Assembly (NCBI GenBank): GCA_016182485.1
Contig: JACPGH010000005.1
Location: forward strand, 64,305 to 128,304
Length of the DNA: 64,000 nt
Reading direction: 5' to 3'
From: Candidatus Kaiserbacteria bacterium
GTDB lineage: Bacteria > Patescibacteriota > Minisyncoccia > Phycocordibacterales > Phycocordibacteraceae
Of the stretch, positions 13,651 through 24,313 are shown piece by piece. Under the pieces are notes generated by a model. The model was given only the letters and a program-made list of their open reading frames with translations, had not been told where the DNA came from and ran no database searches. Numbering within the stretch: the stretch's first letter is position 1; each line of letters starts with the position of its first letter. A program made the translations under genes and the position numbers.

Positions 13651-14805
13651 TTAAGGTAGACCCGTCGTAATTATCTTCTCGAGTTCCGGGATGCGGGAGG
13701 CGAAGGCGGCGACAGAGTCCGCTATCGGGGCGGCGAGCAGGAGATCGAGCGCCTGACCAGTCTCGCTCGCATATTGAGCGCGGACATACGTAGCGGAAAG
13801 TGCATTTAGCGAGCGGGAGCTCGTCTCACCGGTAACTGTGCTGGTGGTAATGAGGCCGACGAGCTTTCCAGAGCTGTCTGTCACCCCGCCGCCGGAGGAA
13901 CCTTCCTGCGCCGCGGCGGAACCGCCGAGCGCGAGCACGTCGGCGGTATTCGTGCCGAACGTGAACAGCTCCTTCACCGATCCATACACGACGATAGGGT
14001 AAAGCGCGGAGCGGATCTGCTCTGCGTCCAAGAATTGCGCGCCATAGGAGGCAATGGCGACTCCGACGCCTTGGACTGGCGGCGCGGCAGAGAGAGAAAT
14101 GAACGGGAATCGCGAGGGCAGCGGTTCGGAAGTCATACTCTTCGTGACTGCGAGCAGGGCGTAATCATATTGGCCGTCTCCGTCCGCTTCTGCCTCCGTT
14201 ACCACCCTGGGGTTGGTCTTAAGCCAGGCGGGCGAGACGTACACGAGGGAAGCTTGATACATATCTTTTGCCGGGTTTCCCGAGCGGATCCGACAGGACA
14301 CGCTCTGGTCGGCAAGCAGCAGATACTGGGCTATGTGCGCATTCGTCAGAATTATCCCTTTGGGATCGATGAATATGCCTCCGCCGCTCGTCGAACGGAT
14401 GCGACCGCCTGCGGGCGCATAGCACAGAATGTTGACCAGCGCGCCGCGGAGCATTTGCGCGCCCGCGTCCAGAGAGCCGGCATCCGTGGATGCCTCGATT
14501 GGCAAAGATACCGGGGCGGCAGAAACGGTCGTTTCTGCTGGGGGCGGCGCGACTTTAGCCACCGGAGGCTCTTTCTCCTCCTTTTTCTCCACAACTGTGG
14601 TGGAAGTGGCCTGAGTTGAATTGTCAGCCTCCGAAGAAAAGCCTGCGTCCGTGGCCGGCGAACCGGCGAGAGGGGCAGGGGCATAGTACTGTCGAACTGT
14701 CTCCGCCGGATTGAGGAGCTTGAAAATAGCGAGGCCGCCTACGGCAAACAGGAGAAGGGCAAATAGGTACGGCGCGTACCGGCTCCAGCGGGACATGTTC
14801 TTCAT
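13651..14805 (-). CDS. membrane-anchored trypsin-like serine protease (S1 family, no PDZ seen)
   Basis: N-terminal TM helix. GGGIFIDPKGIILTNAHI and GSSGGGV.DSSGKLVGLIT catalytic-region motifs. Confidence 0.6.
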   Translation of the reverse strand: MKNMSRWSRYAPYLFALLLFAVGGLAIFKLLNPAETVRQYYAPAPLAGSPATDAGFSSEADNSTQATSTTVVEKKEEKEPPVAKVAPPPAETTVSAAPVSLPIEASTDAGSLDAGAQMLRGALVNILCYAPAGGRIRSTSGGGIFIDPKGIILTNAHIAQYLLLADQSVSCRIRSGNPAKDMYQASLVYVSPAWLKTNPRVVTEAEADGDGQYDYALLAVTKSMTSEPLPSRFPFISLSAAPPVQGVGVAIASYGAQFLDAEQIRSALYPIVVYGSVKELFTFGTNTADVLALGGSAAAQEGSSGGGVTDSSGKLVGLITTSTVTGETSSRSLNALSATYVRAQYASETGQALDLLLAAPIADSVAAFASRIPELEKIITTGLP

Positions 14806-15651: not shown

Positions 15652-15756
15652 GCCGCAAGCGAAACGCTTGCCTCCGGAGGAAGGCGGGCGTTCGTTCCAA
15701 TCGCGGCTCTCCCGAGCCGCGATTTGCTTTATCCTGAAAAAGAGTACGCTAATCCC

Positions 15757-16959
15757 ATGGAACCCCTAGCAGCCCGGATTCGGCCGCAGACCTTGGACGA
15801 GGTCGTCGGGCAGGAACATCTTGTCGGAGAAGGGAAGCCCTTGCGGGTCGCGGTCGAGAAGAAACATTTATTTTCTTTTATTCTCTGGGGCGCGCCCGGG
15901 ACCGGGAAGACAACTATCGCGCGCATCTATGCGCGAGCGCTCGATGCCGCGCTGTATGAGCTCTCGGCGGTCTCCGCCGGCAAAGAAGACATTCGCAAAA
16001 TTGTCCAACCGAGAAGTACCTTAGCGAAGCCTATAGGCCAAACTAAGGTACTGGCGGCAGAAATGGCGCAAGAGAGACCGAAAGTCCTTTTTCTGGACGA
16101 GATACATCGCTTCAATAAAGCACAGCAGGATTTCCTCCTGCCCTATGTCGAGAGCGGGGAACTGACGCTTATCGGCGCGACGACGGAGAATCCGTCGTTC
16201 GAAGTGATCGCTCCATTACTATCGCGCTGCCGCGTCTTCGTGCTCGAGCCGCTCTCTGAAGAAGCCCTGCGCGCCATCGTGAAAAGCACCAAACTGAAAG
16301 TAGATAGAGCCGCGTTCGAGTGGCTCCTCGGATACGCGAACGGCGACGCGCGCAAGGCGCTCGGGATGCTCGAAGGCGCGACGAGCTTGTACGGGAAAGT
16401 TTCTGTTGACACCTTGAACCGCGCGCTCGAATCGCCGCACCTGCGCTACGACAAGAAAGGCGAGGAGCACTACGACACCATCAGCGCATTCATTAAAAGC
16501 ATGCGGGCAAGTCAGCCGGATGCGGCGCTCTATTATCTGGCGCGCATGGTCGAGGCAGGCGAGGACCCGCTCTTTATCGCCCGCAGAATGGTCGTGTTCG
16601 CTTCCGAGGATATCGGCCTTGCCCAGCCGACGGCGCTCGTCGTCGCGAACGAAGTCTTCCGCGCTTGCGAGACGATCGGCTACCCGGAGTGCGCCATCAA
16701 TCTAGCCCACGGCGTCGCGTATCTCGCGCAAGCCAAGAAAGACCGCTCAGCTTACGACGCCCTGCGCGCCGCCCAAGCGGATGTGCGCACCTTCGGCAAT
16801 CTCCCGGTCCCGAAAAAAATCCGCAATCCGGTCACGAAGCTCATGAAAGAGCTCGACTACGGCAAGGGCTATGAAAAATACCCCTCGAAGGGACTCGGGG
16901 CAAGTCCCGACGAATCCTATCTGCCGGACAAATTAAAGAAAAAGAAGTACTTGAAGTAG
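15757..16959 (+). CDS. rarA: replication-associated recombination protein A (AAA+ ATPase RarA/MgsA)
   Basis: Walker A (GAPGTGKTT), Walker B (LFLDEIHRFNK) and the RarA C-terminal region. Confidence 0.85.
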   Translation: MEPLAARIRPQTLDEVVGQEHLVGEGKPLRVAVEKKHLFSFILWGAPGTGKTTIARIYARALDAALYELSAVSAGKEDIRKIVQPRSTLAKPIGQTKVLAAEMAQERPKVLFLDEIHRFNKAQQDFLLPYVESGELTLIGATTENPSFEVIAPLLSRCRVFVLEPLSEEALRAIVKSTKLKVDRAAFEWLLGYANGDARKALGMLEGATSLYGKVSVDTLNRALESPHLRYDKKGEEHYDTISAFIKSMRASQPDAALYYLARMVEAGEDPLFIARRMVVFASEDIGLAQPTALVVANEVFRACETIGYPECAINLAHGVAYLAQAKKDRSAYDALRAAQADVRTFGNLPVPKKIRNPVTKLMKELDYGKGYEKYPSKGLGASPDESYLPDKLKKKKYLK

Positions 16960-16984
16960 CGAAACTCATGTGGACTGCACAAAA

Positions 16985-17809
16985 TCAGCGTGCCGATTCT
17001 TTATTACCCTCCACCTCTGCAATAATCCCTCGTAAAATCTCGTTCGCATCTATGACGCGCGAATGATCCTGCATGAATTTGAGGAACGAGAGCAGCATCT
17101 TTTGGATTTCAGAATTGCGGATCTCAATAACCAGCTCTTCTCCGAGGGCCATCAGGTAGATGGATTGTTTAAAAATGAAGACCTGGCTGGCATGGTTAAA
17201 ATATTCGCCTTCTACCACACCCACTCTCGTCGTGCGGCCTTCGAAATCCCTCGCCCACGAGACTCCCAATTCTCTCGCCATTCTTTCAAGCTCCCCGTCT
17301 TGGAATATTGACTCGGCAATGATGTTGTTTTTCTTCAGCGCACGATTGAAACGGTTCGTCTCCTGAAGAGAGAACGTTTTATTCCAATTTACAGCCGCAC
17401 TATCGCCAACGAGAGAATAGAATCTCTCATTCTTGTGCGCAAAGAGCAGTTCGCCCAGCACCTTTCGAATCGAGTCCTGGCCGCGATGAATGATGACCGT
17501 GGCATCCGAAAGGCCGTGCACCTCCTCAGTCCCTTCCGGAATCTTTAGAAGCGTCCGCTTAGCCGCATACAGCACCCCCTCGATATCTCGCTCGGGGGCG
17601 AGCCGCCACATTTTCTTGCCGCTCGTAATATGAGACTCAGCCAAACCGCGCTTTTTCAGATTGTAGAGAATCGCGTAGGCCGCCGTGCGAGACACTCTCG
17701 TTGCACGCGCCAATAAAAGAGGCGTATCAACACCACTCTGGAGGGCAGTGAGTATCTTTTCTTCTTTCTTTGAGAGTCCAAGTAGCTTGAGGGTTTCAGA
17801 AGCGGGCAT
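16985..17809 (-). CDS. TrmB-like HTH transcriptional regulator (paralog 4)
   Basis: wHTH (EEKILTALQSGVDTPLLLARATRVSRTAAYAILYNLKKRGL). Divergent from the peptide/radical-SAM operon. Confidence 0.6.
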   Translation of the reverse strand: MPASETLKLLGLSKKEEKILTALQSGVDTPLLLARATRVSRTAAYAILYNLKKRGLAESHITSGKKMWRLAPERDIEGVLYAAKRTLLKIPEGTEEVHGLSDATVIIHRGQDSIRKVLGELLFAHKNERFYSLVGDSAAVNWNKTFSLQETNRFNRALKKNNIIAESIFQDGELERMARELGVSWARDFEGRTTRVGVVEGEYFNHASQVFIFKQSIYLMALGEELVIEIRNSEIQKMLLSFLKFMQDHSRVIDANEILRGIIAEVEGNKESAR

Positions 17810-17991
17810 ACCGGAAGGGTAGCAAATGGGGCAATTCTGTCAAGTTATTTAGACACATATATACTCTGAAATTGCTATTTAGAATAAGACTTTTCTATCA
17901 GTAATCACTCTATGACAGGATTATTTTTTACTGTCAACTGCAAGACGAATACACTTAATTCAGACCGATCCTTGAAAGGAGGTGAACGCCC

Positions 17992-18063
17992 ATGCCGACG
18001 GCCAACTCGGGTTCCGCCGGGAAGAGCCGCAAGGCTCTGCCGGCCAAGCGCCCCTCCAAGTAG
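17992..18063 (+). CDS. 23-aa peptide MPTANSGSAGKSRKALPAKRPSK (candidate precursor peptide 1)
   Basis: SD GGAGGTG 8 nt upstream. Near-identical to the peptide 100 bp downstream. Confidence 0.5.
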   Translation: MPTANSGSAGKSRKALPAKRPSK

Positions 18064-18166
18064 GGCGCGGGGAACCTGTCAGCTCCGGGCTGACCGAGTG
18101 CGCGCGCCACTTGGGAACAGAAGTGCGCGCAGCATTCAAAACACCAAGAGAAAGGAGGTGATGTCC

Positions 18167-18238
18167 ATGGCCACAGCCAACGCCGGTTCCGCTGGCAAGA
18201 GCCGCAAGGCTCTGCCGGCAAGACGCCCCTCCAAGTAG
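18167..18238 (+). CDS. 23-aa peptide MATANAGSAGKSRKALPARRPSK (candidate precursor peptide 2)
   Basis: SD AAAGGAGGTG upstream. The alternative start at 18161 gives MSMATAN.... Confidence 0.5.
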   Translation: MATANAGSAGKSRKALPARRPSK

Positions 18239-18244
18239 GAGACG

Positions 18245-18275
18245 GGCGGAAGCGGGGACTTGTCCCCGCTTCTTT
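18245..18275 (+). terminator. hairpin plus T-tract (partial terminator/attenuator) between the peptide genes and the radical-SAM gene
   Basis: ggaagcggggacttgtccccgcttctttgtt. Confidence 0.4.
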
Positions 18276-18297
18276 GTTATCAACCCAGACTGCTACT

Positions 18298-19656
18298 ATG
18301 GAGAGGACAATGGAAGGCCAACCGAAGCAGAAACTCGAGAGCCAAGAAGCGCTGTCAGAACTGACGTTGCAGACCGAGCTGCGCGAGAGCGGGGAGTACG
18401 CCTACGCCCCGTCCGCATCGCACTGGTACTGGAACATGGTGGACGGCAAGCCGTTCAGCGACACGCAGAAAGCGGAGCTTCTCCTGGCGCAAAAAGACGA
18501 GCTTCCGTATCTGGTCTCCGCCTTGTTGGAGAGGACCTGCAATCTCCGCTGCGCGCACTGCATCTACCAAGACGAGCAGAGCAGCAGGAAGGCGTCGGAG
18601 GAAGGCCAGCTAGCGGCGGTCGTCGAGCACATAATCCGTACGATGCCGCAAGGCCCCGCAGAGCAGAGGGCCAAGTTCATGTCCGCCGGCAGAATCCTGC
18701 GGCCGTGGCACCTCGACATCTTCAAGAAACTTCGCGAGAGCCGGCCGGACGTGCAGCTTGGCGTCATCGACAACGGCACGTACACGAAACTGTTGCGCAC
18801 ATGGCCAGAAGGATTGCAACTGGACTGGCTCGACATCTCTGTGGACGGCACCGAGGCGAACCATGACAAGCAGAGAGGGGAGTCCTCATACGCCGCGGCT
18901 ATGGAGGGACTGCGGCATGCGCGCGAAATCACTCGCTCTCGTGAAGAGGGCGGATATGTGGCATCGCTGCTGACGCTCACCAACATCAACGCGGGCGACG
19001 TCTTGCAAGTAGCCAATACTCTTCTCAATGAGAAGGCCGGCGAACCGCTGGCAGACAAGCTGAACCTCACGACCATGGGGCCGACCAACGCGATCAATGC
19101 GCGCCTCGAGATAAGTCAGCTCGACTTCGCGCAGGCGTGGGACGGACTCAAAGAGGCGTGTGCGAAATACAACACGCCAGGCAACGAGCGTGTCTCGCTC
19201 GGCCTGTACCGCGTCGAGGACGTGGAGAAGCTCGCCGCAGTGGTCGGAGAAGGGAAATTCTTAGAGTCCTTTCCAGCCGACGAGGACAAGGCGCGCGAGC
19301 GGGTCACGTTCCGAGGCAACTTCGTCGAAACGCATGTCGACGGCGTGCCCGTCTCCTACCTGCCCATCTCGATCTGGCCGCCTGAAGAATTCTTGATCGA
19401 TGCGGATGGGGCATACCGCCTCGCCTACGAAGGCCAGTTCACGCTCGAGGAGCTGCGTGCGGGCTCACAAGAAAGCTGGGACGGCCACAGCGCGCGCGAC
19501 TACACCGTCACGCAGCTCACGCCAGAGACGGACTTCCGCGCTGTGTACGAGCAAGCCGTGGATATCTACTGGCAACGCTTCGGCCACGCAAAGCTCGATC
19601 AGGAATTCGCCGCGTTCGCGCGAATACGCGAAAAGGCCCGACAAGAGGGCAGGTAA
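18298..19656 (+). CDS. radical SAM enzyme (CX3CX2C; no obvious SPASM cysteines)
   Basis: LLERTCNLRCAHCIYQ radical-SAM cluster motif at about residue 85. Only one other Cys, so a SPASM/twitch domain is unlikely. Start could be 18298 or 18310 (SD GGAGAGG). Confidence 0.7.
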   Translation: MERTMEGQPKQKLESQEALSELTLQTELRESGEYAYAPSASHWYWNMVDGKPFSDTQKAELLLAQKDELPYLVSALLERTCNLRCAHCIYQDEQSSRKASEEGQLAAVVEHIIRTMPQGPAEQRAKFMSAGRILRPWHLDIFKKLRESRPDVQLGVIDNGTYTKLLRTWPEGLQLDWLDISVDGTEANHDKQRGESSYAAAMEGLRHAREITRSREEGGYVASLLTLTNINAGDVLQVANTLLNEKAGEPLADKLNLTTMGPTNAINARLEISQLDFAQAWDGLKEACAKYNTPGNERVSLGLYRVEDVEKLAAVVGEGKFLESFPADEDKARERVTFRGNFVETHVDGVPVSYLPISIWPPEEFLIDADGAYRLAYEGQFTLEELRAGSQESWDGHSARDYTVTQLTPETDFRAVYEQAVDIYWQRFGHAKLDQEFAAFARIREKARQEGR

Positions 19657-19671
19657 AAACATGGATGTAAC

Positions 19672-19708
19672 GGTCCCGCATTCATCGCTGAATGCGGGAC
19701 TTCTTATT
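19672..19708 (+). terminator. rho-independent terminator
   Basis: gtcccgcattcatcgctgaatgcgggac + ttcttatt. Confidence 0.5.
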
Positions 19709-19729
19709 GGTTAGAGCGAAAAGGCCGAT

Positions 19730-19918
19730 ATGGTATACTCGAATCGTATGACTTTAGCTCAAGTCAAAAAACTCGTGCGACAAACGGAGAAGGCGGCGAA
19801 GCTCGTCTCGCGCAACCGCCTCCTCATCGAGACGTATTTGAGCATGCGAGAGGCTAAAGAAGGGAAAGTAACCTCGCATAAATCAACGAAAGCATTGTTC
19901 AAGCGCCTGCATATATGA
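19730..19918 (+). CDS. putative antitoxin of a RelE/ParE-type TA pair
   Basis: 62 aa basic protein. Its stop overlaps the toxin start (ATGA). Confidence 0.4.
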   Translation: MVYSNRMTLAQVKKLVRQTEKAAKLVSRNRLLIETYLSMREAKEGKVTSHKSTKALFKRLHI

Positions 19919-20190
19919 TCCCCGAGCGGCGAATCGATACTACGCCGCACTTTGATCATGCACTCACGCACTTTCTCAAAGCTCACCCAGACCTGCGGGA
20001 GAAGACACTTGTCCTCATTGATCGACTCGCAATAGACCCTTTTGACCCACGCAACAAGACGCATCGGTTATCAGGCCCGCTCAAGTCGCTGTGGGGAGCG
20101 CATATTTCATTTCAGTATCGCCTCATATTCGCGATTTCGGACGACGCCATTTTGTTAATAAACACAGGTTCGCACGATGAGGTGTATTAG
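19915..20190 (+). CDS. RelE/ParE-family toxin (mRNA interferase)
   Basis: C-terminal LSGPLKSLWGAHISFQYRLIFAISDD..LLINTGSHDEVY resembles the RelE/ParE/YoeB family. Confidence 0.65.
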   Translation: MIPERRIDTTPHFDHALTHFLKAHPDLREKTLVLIDRLAIDPFDPRNKTHRLSGPLKSLWGAHISFQYRLIFAISDDAILLINTGSHDEVY

Positions 20191-20201
20191 CAGAGCCTAA
20201 T

Positions 20202-20984
20202 TTAAGCATCGAGCGTCATCCACTGGAGCGCGAAGATGCTTTTCAGCGTTCGGGCGATGCCGGCGCTCTCAATAATGAGCCCGAGCTGGTCCTGAAAGGA
20301 CATGATGCCGATTCTGTCCGGCCCGTAGAGATTGACCTCGACCAAGAGAGGGAATTGTTCCGGGTCGATGAGTTTGGTGGTGCGTAAGGACTTGTTATCT
20401 ATGCCCTTATAGTCCCGGATTATCGGCAGATCCGGCGCGATCGCTTCTACCCAGATCTTTTTCTCCAGCCGCTTCGGCACATAGTATTCATCGAGAAATT
20501 TCTGATCGAATTTATGGATCATTTCTTCCGAAACCCACGTCTGCATCTTTTGATCCGGAAAGCGGAGCGTGTCTTTGTACACGTCTTTAATTCCTTCGAT
20601 GCCTTCGAAATAGCGAATGCGCGGCTTTTTCTTCAGCGTGTTCGTGATGGAGAGCAATTCAGGCAAAATCTTCTCGATCGAAGATTTCTTTTCGTCGAGC
20701 AATTCGACTATTTTCCGCGGGTCCTCCGCTATGTATATGATTTTCTTTTGTCTTTTGGCCGTACTCACGAGTCCGGAACGCTTGAGCGATTCCACGGTGT
20801 CATAAAGGGTCGTCCGTTTCAGCTTAGACTTCTTCACGAGCTGGCCCATGTGAGCCTCGCCAAGCTCGAGGAGAGCCAGGTAGGCCGCAGCCTCCTTGTC
20901 GTCGAGCCCGGTGCCTTTCAAATCAGAAATCGTCATGGTTTTGGTATAAGTGTCGTCCTTTAGGTCAACTTTTACATCATACAC
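20202..20984 (-). CDS. TrmB-like HTH transcriptional regulator (paralog 5)
   Basis: wHTH (KEAAAYLALLELGEAHMGQLVKKSKLKRTTLYDTVESLKRSGL) plus the family C-terminus. Start may be the internal M (20936). Confidence 0.6.
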   Translation of the reverse strand: MYDVKVDLKDDTYTKTMTISDLKGTGLDDKEAAAYLALLELGEAHMGQLVKKSKLKRTTLYDTVESLKRSGLVSTAKRQKKIIYIAEDPRKIVELLDEKKSSIEKILPELLSITNTLKKKPRIRYFEGIEGIKDVYKDTLRFPDQKMQTWVSEEMIHKFDQKFLDEYYVPKRLEKKIWVEAIAPDLPIIRDYKGIDNKSLRTTKLIDPEQFPLLVEVNLYGPDRIGIMSFQDQLGLIIESAGIARTLKSIFALQWMTLDA

Positions 20985-21132
20985 AAAGCCAGTATTTATG
21001 CAACTTTCTAGGCACTATTGGCCGGAATATGACCCATTTATTGACATTACTACTCCACGGTGTCATAATGGCCTCAGGAAGTTGAACATTGATCCGTAAG
21101 TCCTGAGCCGCAAGGCCAGGCAGGACGAGGAG

Positions 21133-21633
21133 ATGGCAATGAAGATCCTGGTGATTGATGACAAGATCGCGAATCAGGAGTCCGCCCGCACCACGCTCGC
21201 GGGACACGACCTGACAGTTCTCGGCACTACCGTCGAGGCCGGAGCCCTGTTCAGCAAGTACAGCAAAGTGAAGTTCGACTTCGACGTCGTGCTGACCGAC
21301 CTCATGATGCCGGTCGATCACAAGGGCTACGCCGGCCAGTCCACGCCCTTCGGGCCTGACGGCACGGCGGTCGACCCTGCGTCCTGCGTCGGCGAAAAGC
21401 CCGTCGGGCTCGGGTTCGCTCTGCTCGCTGCCAAGAAAGGCGCGAAGTTCGTCGCCGTGGTGACGGGTATCGGCCATCACTCCGACCCGATCGTCGCCCA
21501 GTTCGATTTCTTCGGATACGGAGAAAGCACGATTCGCGTGGAGGACGCGAAGGTGATGCTCGTCAACGGTGGCGGCACATCCGAGCACGTGAAGGACTGG
21601 GGAGCGGTCTTAGAAGCGCTCATTAAGAAGTAG
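21133..21633 (+). CDS. CheY-like receiver-domain protein (single-domain response regulator, atypical C-terminus)
   Basis: MKILVIDD...DVVLTDLMMP receiver signature. The overlapping minus-strand ORF 20977-21588 is judged spurious. Confidence 0.6.
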   Translation: MAMKILVIDDKIANQESARTTLAGHDLTVLGTTVEAGALFSKYSKVKFDFDVVLTDLMMPVDHKGYAGQSTPFGPDGTAVDPASCVGEKPVGLGFALLAAKKGAKFVAVVTGIGHHSDPIVAQFDFFGYGESTIRVEDAKVMLVNGGGTSEHVKDWGAVLEALIKK

Positions 21634-21881: not shown

Positions 21882-22550
21882 ATGAGAGAAACCGAACGTG
21901 TCGAGATTCTCATCGACGCAGGGAACTTCTATCATCTTGCGCTTAAGAAACTTGGCGTCGCGGAAATAGATTTCGATTATGAGGCCTTTGTTTCTTTTCT
22001 CATGAACGGCCGCACGCTCGTCCCTGAAGGGAAGCGATTATATGTCGGTACCGTACGCGAAAAAGAAGGCGATTTGAGGACGAAGAACGCGATGGCCGAA
22101 CAGCGCCGGTTCTTGTCAGTGCTCCTATCGGCGAAATGGCAGATAAAGACCAGCAAACTCCGATCGCGCATTGAAGAGATAGCTGTTGATTCGCGCATGC
22201 AGGAGTACAAAACTCTGACTGCCGCGGGTGTTCAAACGATTCACGTTGAACGCATGCGCGAAAAGGGTATCGATGTGAAAATCGCGACTGATCTCATCGT
22301 CGGAGCAGTAGACGATAAATATGATACTGCAATTGTCATCAGTTCAGATACCGATTTAGTTCCCGCCATTGACTGGGTTCGGATGCGAAAGAAGAAACGC
22401 GCCGAGTACGTAGGATTTTCAATTCCCGATGCTCGCGGCAACGCCTATGCGTCGAAGCCGACGTTTGCGCTCATCGCGCGGACGGATGTCCAGCGCATCC
22501 TAGTTGAATCGGACATACGGCGTTTTATTAAGCAAAAACTCATGCCATAG
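21882..22550 (+). CDS. NYN-domain (LabA/DUF88-like) protein, second copy
   Basis: IDAGNFYH...GIDVKIATDLIVGAVDDKYDTAIVISSDTDLVPAI. Confidence 0.65.
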   Translation: MRETERVEILIDAGNFYHLALKKLGVAEIDFDYEAFVSFLMNGRTLVPEGKRLYVGTVREKEGDLRTKNAMAEQRRFLSVLLSAKWQIKTSKLRSRIEEIAVDSRMQEYKTLTAAGVQTIHVERMREKGIDVKIATDLIVGAVDDKYDTAIVISSDTDLVPAIDWVRMRKKKRAEYVGFSIPDARGNAYASKPTFALIARTDVQRILVESDIRRFIKQKLMP

Positions 22551-23076: not shown

Positions 23077-23595
23077 CTACAGTTGCGCGAGATAGCGTTC
23101 GAGTATGGTAGACTCGTCGAGATCGTCGCGGCCGAAACGCTCTTTTTGCGCGCGCATGAGCGGGATGAGTTCTTCGGCGCTTTTCCATTCAAGCTCGCTC
23201 TTTCCCTCGGCATCGGAGAGGTCGCGCCTTTCACCGGCGTCCTTTTGGTACGTGCTGAGAAAGTAGAGCGTCGTTTTCTGGAATGGCTTCTTGCCTTCGC
23301 GGTCATTACCGGCATAGGCAGTAGCCACGATAGCGCCGAGATAGCCATCGAGGGAGGCGGCGGCGTTAAATTCTTCCGCGAGCCCGCGAGCGAGAGCATG
23401 TTCCAGAGTCTCGTTCGGCTCGAGCGTCTCGCGCATCAAAATATAGAAATCGGTAATGGCCTCTCCCGCCCAGAACCCTTTCGCCGCGTCAGCAGGGAAG
23501 TGGTGGACGCGCACTAACCCTTCGGCATTCCGCATGACAGCTCCTACGGAAATGTGCTGGGCATGGCCCTCGTGACCAGCGTAGTAGTTGTTCAT
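23077..23595 (-). CDS. putative Nudix-family hydrolase
   Basis: Degenerate Nudix-box-like segment (ETLEHALARGLAEEFN). Start taken at the internal M (MNNYY); the upstream ORF part overlaps the divergent gene. Confidence 0.4.
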   Translation of the reverse strand: MNNYYAGHEGHAQHISVGAVMRNAEGLVRVHHFPADAAKGFWAGEAITDFYILMRETLEPNETLEHALARGLAEEFNAAASLDGYLGAIVATAYAGNDREGKKPFQKTTLYFLSTYQKDAGERRDLSDAEGKSELEWKSAEELIPLMRAQKERFGRDDLDESTILERYLAQL

Positions 23596-24313
23596 GCGGA
23601 TAGTATACAAAATGAAACAAAATGTGTTCGATGCTACAGTACGTGTACGAACAATGCCAAGCAACGAGGGGGCTCCAATGGAGAAGGCCGAGCAGATGGA
23701 AACGCACGAGGAGAAGGCGGTGCGTTTATCACGCGCTCTTGAGGAGTCTAGAGACCCGGAGTTTATAAAGCAAAACCTGCCGGAACTCTTCGACATTTTG
23801 GAGAACGAGCTCGGCTTATCGCTACTCAAGGGGAAAGAGGTAAATGCGATATATAGGCGCTTCATTGAAGGCGGGTGCCTCGTGCGTGTGGAAAAATTCA
23901 CACGCATTATGGAAGCGCTCGAATTGAACCATGGCTTCAAGGTCGGCGAGCGCATGGGCGACTCGCACTATGCCAATGCCGTCATCCCGGATCCGGAGGG
24001 CATTAGGCTCGCCTTCGCGGAGGGACAAATGTCCGGGTCGCTCCGAGTCGCCATGGGACTCGGAAAGTCACTGGTCGGATTTCAAACAGCAGCTGACCAT
24101 ATAACCGTATCCGCCGTCGATTTCGCCGAGGAGGATCCGCGCGACACTGGCAAGCGCGGGCATCTCTGCCGGCATGTTGAGGGAGAAATAATGGGGGAGG
24201 ATATTCGCGGCGTCGTGATGCGCATACCTCGCGCGGTGGTTAGCGAGTCTCTACTGACAGACGAGGAGTCAGAAGGAAACGGGCAATTCGTATTTCGCGG
24301 ATTTTTGACTTGA
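23588..24313 (+). CDS. hypothetical protein
   Basis: ORF only. The likely start is the internal MPSNEG at 23654. Confidence 0.35.
   Translation: MFMRIVYKMKQNVFDATVRVRTMPSNEGAPMEKAEQMETHEEKAVRLSRALEESRDPEFIKQNLPELFDILENELGLSLLKGKEVNAIYRRFIEGGCLVRVEKFTRIMEALELNHGFKVGERMGDSHYANAVIPDPEGIRLAFAEGQMSGSLRVAMGLGKSLVGFQTAADHITVSAVDFAEEDPRDTGKRGHLCRHVEGEIMGEDIRGVVMRIPRAVVSESLLTDEESEGNGQFVFRGFLT

Follow-up and report, generated by a model that had tools for sequence, protein, structure and literature searches.

A likely peptide-plus-maturase module in Candidatus Kaiserbacteria, with two tandem 23-residue peptides and a radical SAM enzyme

Enzymes of the radical S-adenosylmethionine (rSAM) type are known to modify short peptides as well as proteins. 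In the peptide NxxcA, such an enzyme joins the beta carbon of Asn20 to Cys23, a link from residue i to residue i+3 (PMC8326336). The enzyme anSME attacks the beta carbon of Ser or Cys, and proteusin epimerases need no cluster besides that of the rSAM and no leader (PMC8326336). Both known epimerase types rely on a conserved Cys as hydrogen donor (PMC8326336). The locus described here is compared with these systems. It lies in a stretch of 64,000 nucleotides of Candidatus Kaiserbacteria DNA (assembly GCA_016182485.1, contig JACPGH010000005.1, positions 64,305 to 128,304), called the window below. It holds two tandem genes for 23-residue peptides, pep1 and pep2, followed by a gene for an rSAM enzyme and flanked by a divergent regulator gene.

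The two peptide genes and the rSAM gene very probably form a dedicated peptide-plus-maturase module of the Candidate Phyla Radiation (CPR), or Patescibacteria. Going by sequence, this would be a module of the type that makes ribosomally synthesised peptides with post-translational modifications (RiPPs), since a short encoded precursor is conserved together with a dedicated enzyme. The peptides carry a four-residue motif, N-x-G-S/T, which is probably what the enzyme modifies.

On the forward strand, pep1 (17992-18063) encodes MPTANSGSAGKSRKALPAKRPSK, with the motif T-A-N-S-G-S, and pep2 (18167-18238) encodes MATANAGSAGKSRKALPARRPSK, with the motif T-A-N-A-G-S. Each is preceded at 7-8 nt by the Shine-Dalgarno sequence GGAGGTG, which can be read directly from the forward strand at 17978-17984 and 18154-18160. 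The aligned peptides agree at 20/23 residues; of the codon differences, 3 change the residue and 4 are synonymous. A preliminary description of the window had reported two near-identical 23-codon genes with these ribosome binding sites, and it had their positions right.

The peptides are easily missed by annotation. The regulator and the rSAM are 100% identical to HYV30_02405 and HYV30_02410 of a Candidatus Kaiserbacteria metagenome-assembled genome, where both are labelled 'hypothetical protein'. NCBI locus tags usually step by five, and these two are consecutive, so the peptide genes between them are left uncalled in GenBank. Neither the window peptides nor eight further family peptides have a Pfam or NCBIfam match, even at E<=10; the earlier description had likewise not recognised the peptide as any named RiPP class.

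A 108-codon open reading frame (ORF) also spans this region (17912-18238, + strand). It is Arg/Pro-rich; pep2 lies within it in the same frame, and pep1 is overlapped in a different one. This ORF was rejected as a genuine gene, as pep2 has its own Shine-Dalgarno sequence and ATG, and is probably an artefact of a GC-rich stretch.

The module reading is carried by the co-occurrence of motif and enzyme. From GTDB genomes and JGI metagenomes, 35 loci of the rSAM family were recovered, and 28 distinct ones with at least 300 bp upstream were assessed. The strict criterion was a same-strand small ORF, preceded by a Shine-Dalgarno sequence, with [A/G/T..]-[A/S/T..]-N-x-G-[S/T] no more than 12 residues from its start. 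Twenty loci with unrelated rSAMs, taken from the same scans, served as controls. Upstream of the family rSAM, motif peptides were found in 25/28 loci by the strict criterion and in 27/28 by a looser one, with one to three ORFs per locus. The controls gave 0/20, so the arrangement goes beyond coincidence. The looser forms are LNCGS and INTGS in locus L010 and FQNSGS in L043. All of this spans rSAM identities of 31-71% in Patescibacteria metagenomes. Within the 64-kb window, the six frames hold four matches to the loose pattern, of which only pep1 and pep2 have the form of a peptide gene.

Across the family, the peptides are 19-60 residues long, and the motif starts 2-9 residues past the Met. 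Examples are MTANTGSAGKGRETIPATRPSR, MCEAAANAGSAGKGRKATPVTPPSH (in two copies), MRKACDAAANTGSAGRSGRGQPPPR and MAGANSGSAFRGTPQAPVKLPRKQRVRKARAVKK. In L037, the peptide at 1974-2033, MTANTGTAGKGGNVQPLKR, has Thr in place of the motif Ser. The window peptides are free of Cys, and Cys is not conserved among the other family peptides. Single peptides in L010, L013, L015, L042 and L069 repeat the motif two or three times.

The tails vary, ranging across loci from Pro/Lys/Arg-rich to acidic. Where the enzymes are at least 48% identical, the motif is followed by [KR] and then by a C-terminal P-x-x-[KR]. The clade with 35-39% enzyme identity has long Pro/Lys/Arg tails. A covariation of charge between enzyme and peptide was considered and dropped, as net charges do not vary together consistently across loci.

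In a distant clade, two or three motif units follow each other in tandem and in frame (L013 3708-3881, L014 3609-3752, L015 3727-3915, L042 ~70-258). In some of these ORFs, each unit keeps its own Shine-Dalgarno-like sequence, which is read as R/K-E-E, and its own ATG. Such ORFs could yield nested peptides or one multi-site peptide.

Gene content indicates that the peptides follow the rSAM and not the regulator, because regulator homologues at 77%, 66% and 53% identity that have no rSAM beside them have no motif peptides either. The motif also extends beyond the family proper. Sister rSAMs score about 100-170 bits on the family profile, fall in no curated family, and are likewise without extra conserved Cys; they have the hairpin EFIINSDGxVxLP in common. 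Of six sampled sister loci, three (L066, L067, L069) have motif peptides upstream. The L066 peptides MATANCGSKNLGKEF... and MTGANCGSKGLGKEF... contain ATANCGSK and TGANCGSK, and a divergent helix-turn-helix (HTH) regulator is present there too. L067 has MNKHEAWANSGSIKAPSV, with WANSGSIK. In L069, next to a TrmB gene, the peptides MAAANTGSKGGNMAPRK-NTLNGGISNAGTKGGVNSPRK and MAAANTGSKGGVNTPRK-FNSAAANSGSKGGDIAPRK contain AAANTGSKGG. These lie at 1268-1384 and 1496-1606, and each has two A-A-A-N-x-G-S-K-G-G...P-R-K units, which end in PRK. This suggests that they may be multi-core precursors, cleaved after Arg or Lys. Since the motif recurs in sister loci with different tails, the invariant N-x-G-S/T rather than the tail is the part that co-evolves with the enzyme.

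The peptides also look like protein at the codon level. In 39 instances of the motif, codons for Ala, Gly and Ser have nearly random third positions, with an entropy of ~1.9 bits, and the motif Ser is written with TCN as well as AGT codons. This argues that the peptides are translated and that selection on them operates at the protein level. The preliminary description had mentioned two outcomes that would speak against the RiPP-like reading: small ORFs lacking conservation, and an rSAM from a housekeeping family. Neither was found. The small ORFs are conserved at the amino acid level, beside rSAMs of 31-71% identity and in 3/6 sister loci. The rSAM has a best NCBIfam score of 31 bits, and the MoaA, RlmN and HemW models do not claim it.

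The rSAM enzyme itself (18310-19656, +) is a probable peptide maturase of 448 residues with the motif TCNLRCAHC, a single CX3CX2C and a Cys-less C-terminal domain. The motif had been noted before, together with a slightly different length of 450 residues. There are four Cys in total (77, 81, 84, 284), and in a 19-member alignment the only conserved ones are those of CX3CX2C. The CX3CX2C motif and a partial TIM-barrel rSAM fold place the protein in the radical SAM superfamily. Its match to the Pfam Radical_SAM model is borderline, at 29.6 bits against a cut-off of 29.5.

No NCBIfam model reaches its cut-off. The score of 31 bits belongs to PTO1314, NirJ, AhbC and other models of the SPASM lineage, whose cut-offs lie above 130-650. 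Viperin reaches 24.8 of 180 bits and NrdG2 14.5 of 131. The MoaA, RlmN and HemW models are not among the best 25 of 35 NCBIfam matches to the window rSAM. The SPASM domain (PF13186) matches neither the whole protein nor its isolated C-terminal 175 residues, which bears out the earlier statement that there are too few Cys for a SPASM or twitch domain. In four enzymes, the isolated C-terminal 175 residues have no Pfam match at E<=10. The N-terminal core does look like that of SPASM-lineage enzymes. PqqD (PF05402), which stands for the RiPP recognition element (RRE), gives no match at E<=1, and the predicted N-terminus consists of three helices without a beta-sheet.

An AlphaFold model computed from the family alignment is confident, with a mean predicted local confidence (pLDDT) of 90.9 and a predicted template-modelling score (pTM) of 0.89. 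Its nearest fold matches are peptide-modifying rSAMs: SuiB, SkfB, ChlB and anSME. A profile search of PDB sequences gives SkfB and anSME as sole matches, at E of about 1e-3. Taken together, the scores for SPASM-lineage models, the fold, the SkfB and anSME matches and the restriction of conserved Cys to CX3CX2C make this rSAM an orphan branch of the peptide- and protein-modifying SPASM lineage, in which all auxiliary-cluster ligands have been lost. The conserved hairpin SIWPPEEFLIDADGAYR / FLIDADGAYR would then be a SPASM-like hairpin minus its cysteines. Because the conserved cysteines are those of CX3CX2C only, the enzyme is expected to have a single [4Fe-4S]/SAM site and no auxiliary cluster.

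A word-indexed search gave 66 rSAM homologues at 34-71% identity, and every name given with them is a Patescibacteria lineage. When the family profile was run exhaustively against 1.84 billion cluster representatives, only 84 clusters came out at E<=1e-30, with 155 at E<=1e-10.

A mechanism can be proposed for how the module may work. A promoter in the spacer would drive expression of the two near-identical 23-residue peptides. A leaky terminator after pep2 would pass a fraction of transcripts into the rSAM gene, which would leave the peptide in excess of the enzyme. The divergent TrmB-type repressor probably binds an inverted repeat in the spacer, TGTCAA-N6-TAGACA. The enzyme would recognise N-x-G-S/T directly; no RRE is detectable in it, and no long leader would be involved. 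Its 5'-deoxyadenosyl radical would take a hydrogen atom within this motif.

The chemistry that follows can only be guessed at. The leading, though tentative, guess is that a carbon of the Asn side chain is bridged to Ser/Thr at i+3 over a Gly-containing turn, which would be the oxygen analogue of the NxxC beta-thioether. This guess is made because the motif favours a turn, and because it parallels the Asn-Cys i+3 link in NxxcA. Going by beta-turn propensities, a motif with Asn at position i, Gly at i+2 and a hydroxyl residue at i+3 suits a tight turn that would bring the Asn side chain next to Ser/Thr. Oxidation or dehydration of Ser/Thr, formylglycine-like (as in anSME) or viperin-like, is a rather unlikely outcome. 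By analogy with known epimerases, epimerisation of the peptide ranks about as low. The preliminary description had proposed epimerisation, C-methylation or a carbon-carbon cross-link, after setting aside thioether or sactipeptide chemistry for want of Cys. The latter judgement holds up, as the window peptides do not have the donor Cys. Of the proposals, B12-dependent or HemN-like C-methylation is unlikely because Pfam and NCBIfam scans show no cobalamin-binding or HemN-like family, and epimerisation of the PoyD/YydG type would lack its Cys donor.

Several observations weigh against the module as proposed, or against a particular chemistry. The peptides are putative substrates by gene linkage, which is the one basis for this assignment. 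L017 has no motif peptide within 1.5 kb of its family rSAM. In L007 and L008, the second peptide copy (L007 3677-3736), MTAATGTAGRGASSQPVKR, has Ala in place of Asn and Thr in place of Ser. Among the sister loci, L068 (452-7158) and L070 (2013-4116) encode Cys-less rSAMs with no N-x-G-S peptide in view, and the sister rSAM of L071 has a 195-bp upstream gap without a motif peptide. The 19-member alignment has no conserved Cys outside CX3CX2C that could act as hydrogen donor, which counts against epimerisation. The family's expected lack of an auxiliary cluster weighs against an oxidative cross-link; to our knowledge, the known peptide cross-linking rSAMs (SuiB, NxxcB, TqqB, sactisynthases, PqqE) use SPASM or twitch auxiliary clusters. 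Finally, the surroundings of the module show no conserved RRE, protease, exporter or immunity gene.

This last point touches on what the peptide is for. It might be the precursor of an intracellular peptide-derived cofactor, or a modified small protein, and not a released product; pyrroloquinoline quinone (PQQ), mycofactocin and the action of anSME on sulfatases are examples of this. The lack of a conserved exporter, leader peptidase or immunity gene nearby would fit, as would peptides that have no leader and are fairly conserved and not hypervariable (where the enzymes are at least 48% identical, they keep the motif, [KR] and P-x-x-[KR]). Known cofactor pathways, however, require peptidases, oxidases and the like, and this module has no conserved ones. 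A single cofactor would also sit poorly with several divergent copies per locus and with tails from polycationic to acidic. A cofactor or modified small protein is therefore improbable. It would alter the purpose of the module and leave the relation between enzyme and substrate unchanged.

Another explanation involves the hairpins. The preliminary description had a hairpin between pep2 and the next gene and a terminator after the rSAM gene, and both are found. The first is a terminator-like, probably partial terminator (18248-18279, +) that begins 10 nt past the pep2 stop codon; its hairpin (18248-18273) has an 11-bp stem, a TTTGTT tail, a folding energy of -22.8 kcal/mol and a z-score of -3.1. 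The second is an intrinsic terminator closing the operon (19672-19708, +), with a 13-bp stem (19672-19701) and a z-score of -5.0. A stem-loop with a T-rich tail stands between the last peptide gene and the rSAM in about 16/23 loci, with differing stem sequences. In many RiPP operons, a partial terminator keeps precursor transcripts above enzyme transcripts, and by analogy the hairpin between the genes fits such a role. The operon layout is thus the classic RiPP one described earlier, except that the peptides are essentially leaderless. An Rfam scan of 16500-20500 at E<=1 finds no known RNA.

The small ORFs might also be cis-acting leader peptides, whose translation controls the hairpin and hence rSAM expression by attenuation. 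A ribosome terminating on pep2 could mask the 5' arm of a hairpin only 10 nt away, and similar hairpins occur in related loci. This is a poor match for what the peptides look like, since regulatory leader peptides normally keep no such motif as N-x-G-S/T, which here is kept at the amino acid level with free synonymous change from 71% identity down to the sister families. There are up to three copies per locus, each with its own Shine-Dalgarno sequence, and the motif is repeated within peptides. In L002, L036 and L007, some peptides even lie 300-1300 bp away from the rSAM, separated from it by other genes. Attenuation is therefore very hard to credit as the role of the small ORFs.

Equally far-fetched is an rSAM that acts on a nucleotide or sugar, like viperin, BlsE or MoaA, beside cationic peptides that are merely co-regulated, for example as nucleic-acid-binding micro-proteins: a scan of the window with PADLOC shows weak core-level similarity to the prokaryotic viperin pVip (24.8 bits) and to the Csa3 HTH, and the enzyme is without the auxiliary clusters typical of peptide cross-linkers, but the pVip, BlsE and MoaA models stay far under their cut-offs, the best structural matches are peptide or protein maturases, and the motif tracks the enzyme over deep divergence and repeats within peptides, like a substrate recognition site.

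If the peptide-plus-maturase module is what it seems to be, it is quite possible that it represents a new RiPP class found largely in CPR/Patescibacteria. Such a class would have a single-cluster enzyme, an undescribed modification (for example an Asn-Ser/Thr ether or some other i-to-i+3 bridge formed without an auxiliary cluster) and a leaderless substrate recognised by its motif. The cationic product would serve in episymbiosis, where it could be a signal or an effector aimed at hosts or competitors. There are hints in this direction. The sister rSAMs of L068 and L070 lie inside Opp/Dpp-type oligopeptide ATP-binding cassette (ABC) operons, with ABC_tran plus oligo_HPY, SBP_bac_5 and BPD_transp_1, which hints at peptide traffic. 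The ligand-binding TrmB-type regulator in turn hints at sensing.

The regulator (16985-17809, - strand) has 274 residues, with an N-terminal winged helix of the TrmB type and a C-terminal PLD-like effector domain, which is TrmB-family architecture. Its Pfam TrmB match stays just under the cut-off, at 24.0 against 25.6 bits; most of its at least 161 homologues carry PF01978. It is transcribed away from the peptide genes across a spacer of 182 bp with 37% GC. The preliminary description had called it a divergent TrmB-like winged-helix regulator across an AT-rich spacer, and this stands. A member of the regulator family is found near the rSAM in 27/36 loci (duplicates included), mostly divergent and upstream, and the sister rSAM of L071 is flanked by three TrmB genes. 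As already noted, the homologues at 77%, 66% and 53% identity have neither rSAM nor motif peptides beside them. By this distribution, the regulator family is wider than the peptide-rSAM cassette.

A role for the regulator as an RRE partner, handing the peptide to the enzyme, was also considered. This was rejected, as the protein has a TrmB-like fold with a DNA-binding winged HTH and occurs without peptides.

The spacer contains two inverted repeats. The earlier account singled out TGACAG-N12-CTGTCA, which is indeed there (17913-17936), but only its right arm is conserved: the left arm reads TGCAAG in L001, TGGCAT in L003 and CGACAC in L026. The conserved repeat is instead the imperfect TGTCAA-N6-TAGACA (17838-17855), a candidate operator that is kept in L001, L003, L026, L027, L029 and L060. 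At the equivalent position, distant loci have the palindrome AGTCAATAtTTTTGAC. On the forward strand, the box TTTTTTACTGTCAA (17924-17937) comes with a putative promoter, TTTACT, 17 nt, TACACT, the whole spanning 17924-17955. Box and promoter spacing are conserved in L001, L003, L026, L027 and L060, which is why TTTACT-17-TACACT is read as a promoter. A generic sigma-70 scan did not call it. The spacer would thus hold an operator (TGTCAA-N6-TAGACA) and a promoter.

L060 (2900-4010) deserves separate mention. On this Kaiserbacteria-like contig, with a regulator 77% identical to that of the window, the boxes TGTCAAGTTTTTTGGACA and TTTTACTGTCAA and the adjoining mgsA are all kept, and the promoter region precedes unrelated small genes in place of the peptide-rSAM cassette. 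The cassette thus behaves as cargo that may be present or missing at one shared, regulated site, and the regulator and its divergent promoter resemble a control unit that can be reused.

A second paralogue of the TrmB type lies further downstream in the window (20202-20984, -). It matches PF01978 with 49.8 bits and is 26% identical to the first regulator. A 203-aa ORF without a family match (20977-21588, -) overlaps and precedes it. A second TrmB paralogue downstream of the rSAM is found in several related loci, too.

Apart from this, one other neighbour recurs in the family, a protein of 116-130 residues that is absent from the window and present in eight locus entries (five distinct loci). 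It has no Pfam match, has a C-terminal GGSFxGxP(W), and is found in the clade with ~50% enzyme identity. Its sites are L002 2119-2475, L006 5316-5666, L007 5432-5794, L008 3636-4028 and L036 1084-1437; in some cases it separates the peptide genes from the rSAM, in others it comes directly after the rSAM. It may be an accessory component.

Directly past the rSAM terminator, the window has a pair that resembles a toxin-antitoxin system (19730-20190, +). A 62-aa ORF without a family match overlaps, by 4 nt, a 91-aa toxin of the YafQ/RelE type (PF15738, 36.6 bits). The flanking genes encode a trypsin-like serine peptidase (13651-14805, -), an MgsA/RarA AAA+ ATPase (15724-16959, +), an NYN-domain protein (21882-22550, +) and a NUDIX protein (23077-23955, -). 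In the closest relatives, mgsA is the only flanking gene that is syntenic. The cassette has 60-62% GC, and the DNA beside it 47-52%. As such values are reached elsewhere in the window too, the GC content of the cassette supports no conclusion on transfer.

CPR/Patescibacteria account for a large part of bacterial diversity. Their genomes are minimal, and life on other cells is assumed for them. A module this compact, made up of one enzyme and a 23-residue peptide and recurring in Kaiser-, Taylor-, Adler- and Uhrbacteria as well as related lineages, would give access to a peptide product that is conserved and regulated, in organisms that so far do not grow in culture by themselves. It escapes current annotation, with its peptide genes uncalled and its enzyme 'hypothetical'. 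To annotate it elsewhere, a simple search rule can be used: an rSAM of this family plus a small ORF upstream that contains N-x-G-S/T. The module would also be a case of rSAM peptide chemistry in a SPASM-lineage enzyme stripped of its auxiliary-cluster ligands. Substrate recognition through a four-residue motif, and not through a leader, would make it attractive to enzymology and engineering.

Within the library searched, no description of this system was found in the literature on rSAMs with precursor peptides in Patescibacteria, CPR or Parcubacteria. The main text of a compendium of 15,000 rSAM-RiPP members does not mention Patescibacteria; its supplements fall outside this search.

Among known systems, NxxcA/NxxcB, the ranthipeptide of Streptococcus orisratti, is similar in two respects. 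It has a short precursor gene directly upstream of the rSAM, and it has a four-residue motif led by Asn with a partner at i+3, N-x-x-C there and N-x-G-S/T here. The Asn is essential in NxxC. The partner is Cys in that system and Ser/Thr in this one, whose window peptides are Cys-free and have no evident leader. The enzyme here also has no SPASM domain or auxiliary-cluster Cys, unlike NxxcB; with the related model WgkB, the score is 24.9 bits and the cut-off 650. The hosts are CPR bacteria rather than streptococci. Sactipeptide and ranthipeptide systems in general require the donor Cys that the window peptides do not have.

The maturase anSME (AslB) differs too. It has two auxiliary SPASM clusters, of which this family has none, and TIGR03942 scores 23.7 bits against a cut-off of 349.45. 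Its sulfatase motif (C/S)-x-(P/A)-x-R is missing here, where the peptides carry S-A-G-[KR] or other sequences. Its substrate is a folded sulfatase, compared to a peptide of 19-60 residues in this family.

The proteusin epimerases PoyD and OspD resemble this enzyme as peptide-modifying rSAMs whose one cluster is the rSAM [4Fe-4S] cluster and which act independently of a leader (PMC8326336). They have a strict Cys hydrogen donor, an RRE and long nitrile-hydratase-like precursors (PMC8326336). Set against these two, the present family is without a conserved extra Cys, a PqqD/RRE match or a leader, and its peptides are tiny. SuiB/StrB (streptide), SkfB and ChlB are close in fold, with 10-16% sequence identity. 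SuiB, SkfB and ChlB have an N-terminal RRE and a SPASM/twitch domain, where this enzyme has three N-terminal helices and a 175-residue C-terminus without a Pfam match. On the side of regulation, TrmB and TrmBL2 of Pyrococcus and Thermococcus are the reference. The regulator here is from a bacterial (CPR) branch, and its variable cargo takes the place of sugar-metabolism genes.

As a pairing of an rSAM with a precursor peptide, the module is of a known kind. Its combination of features is unusual: it is largely confined to CPR, leaderless and motif-directed, with neither an RRE nor an auxiliary cluster.

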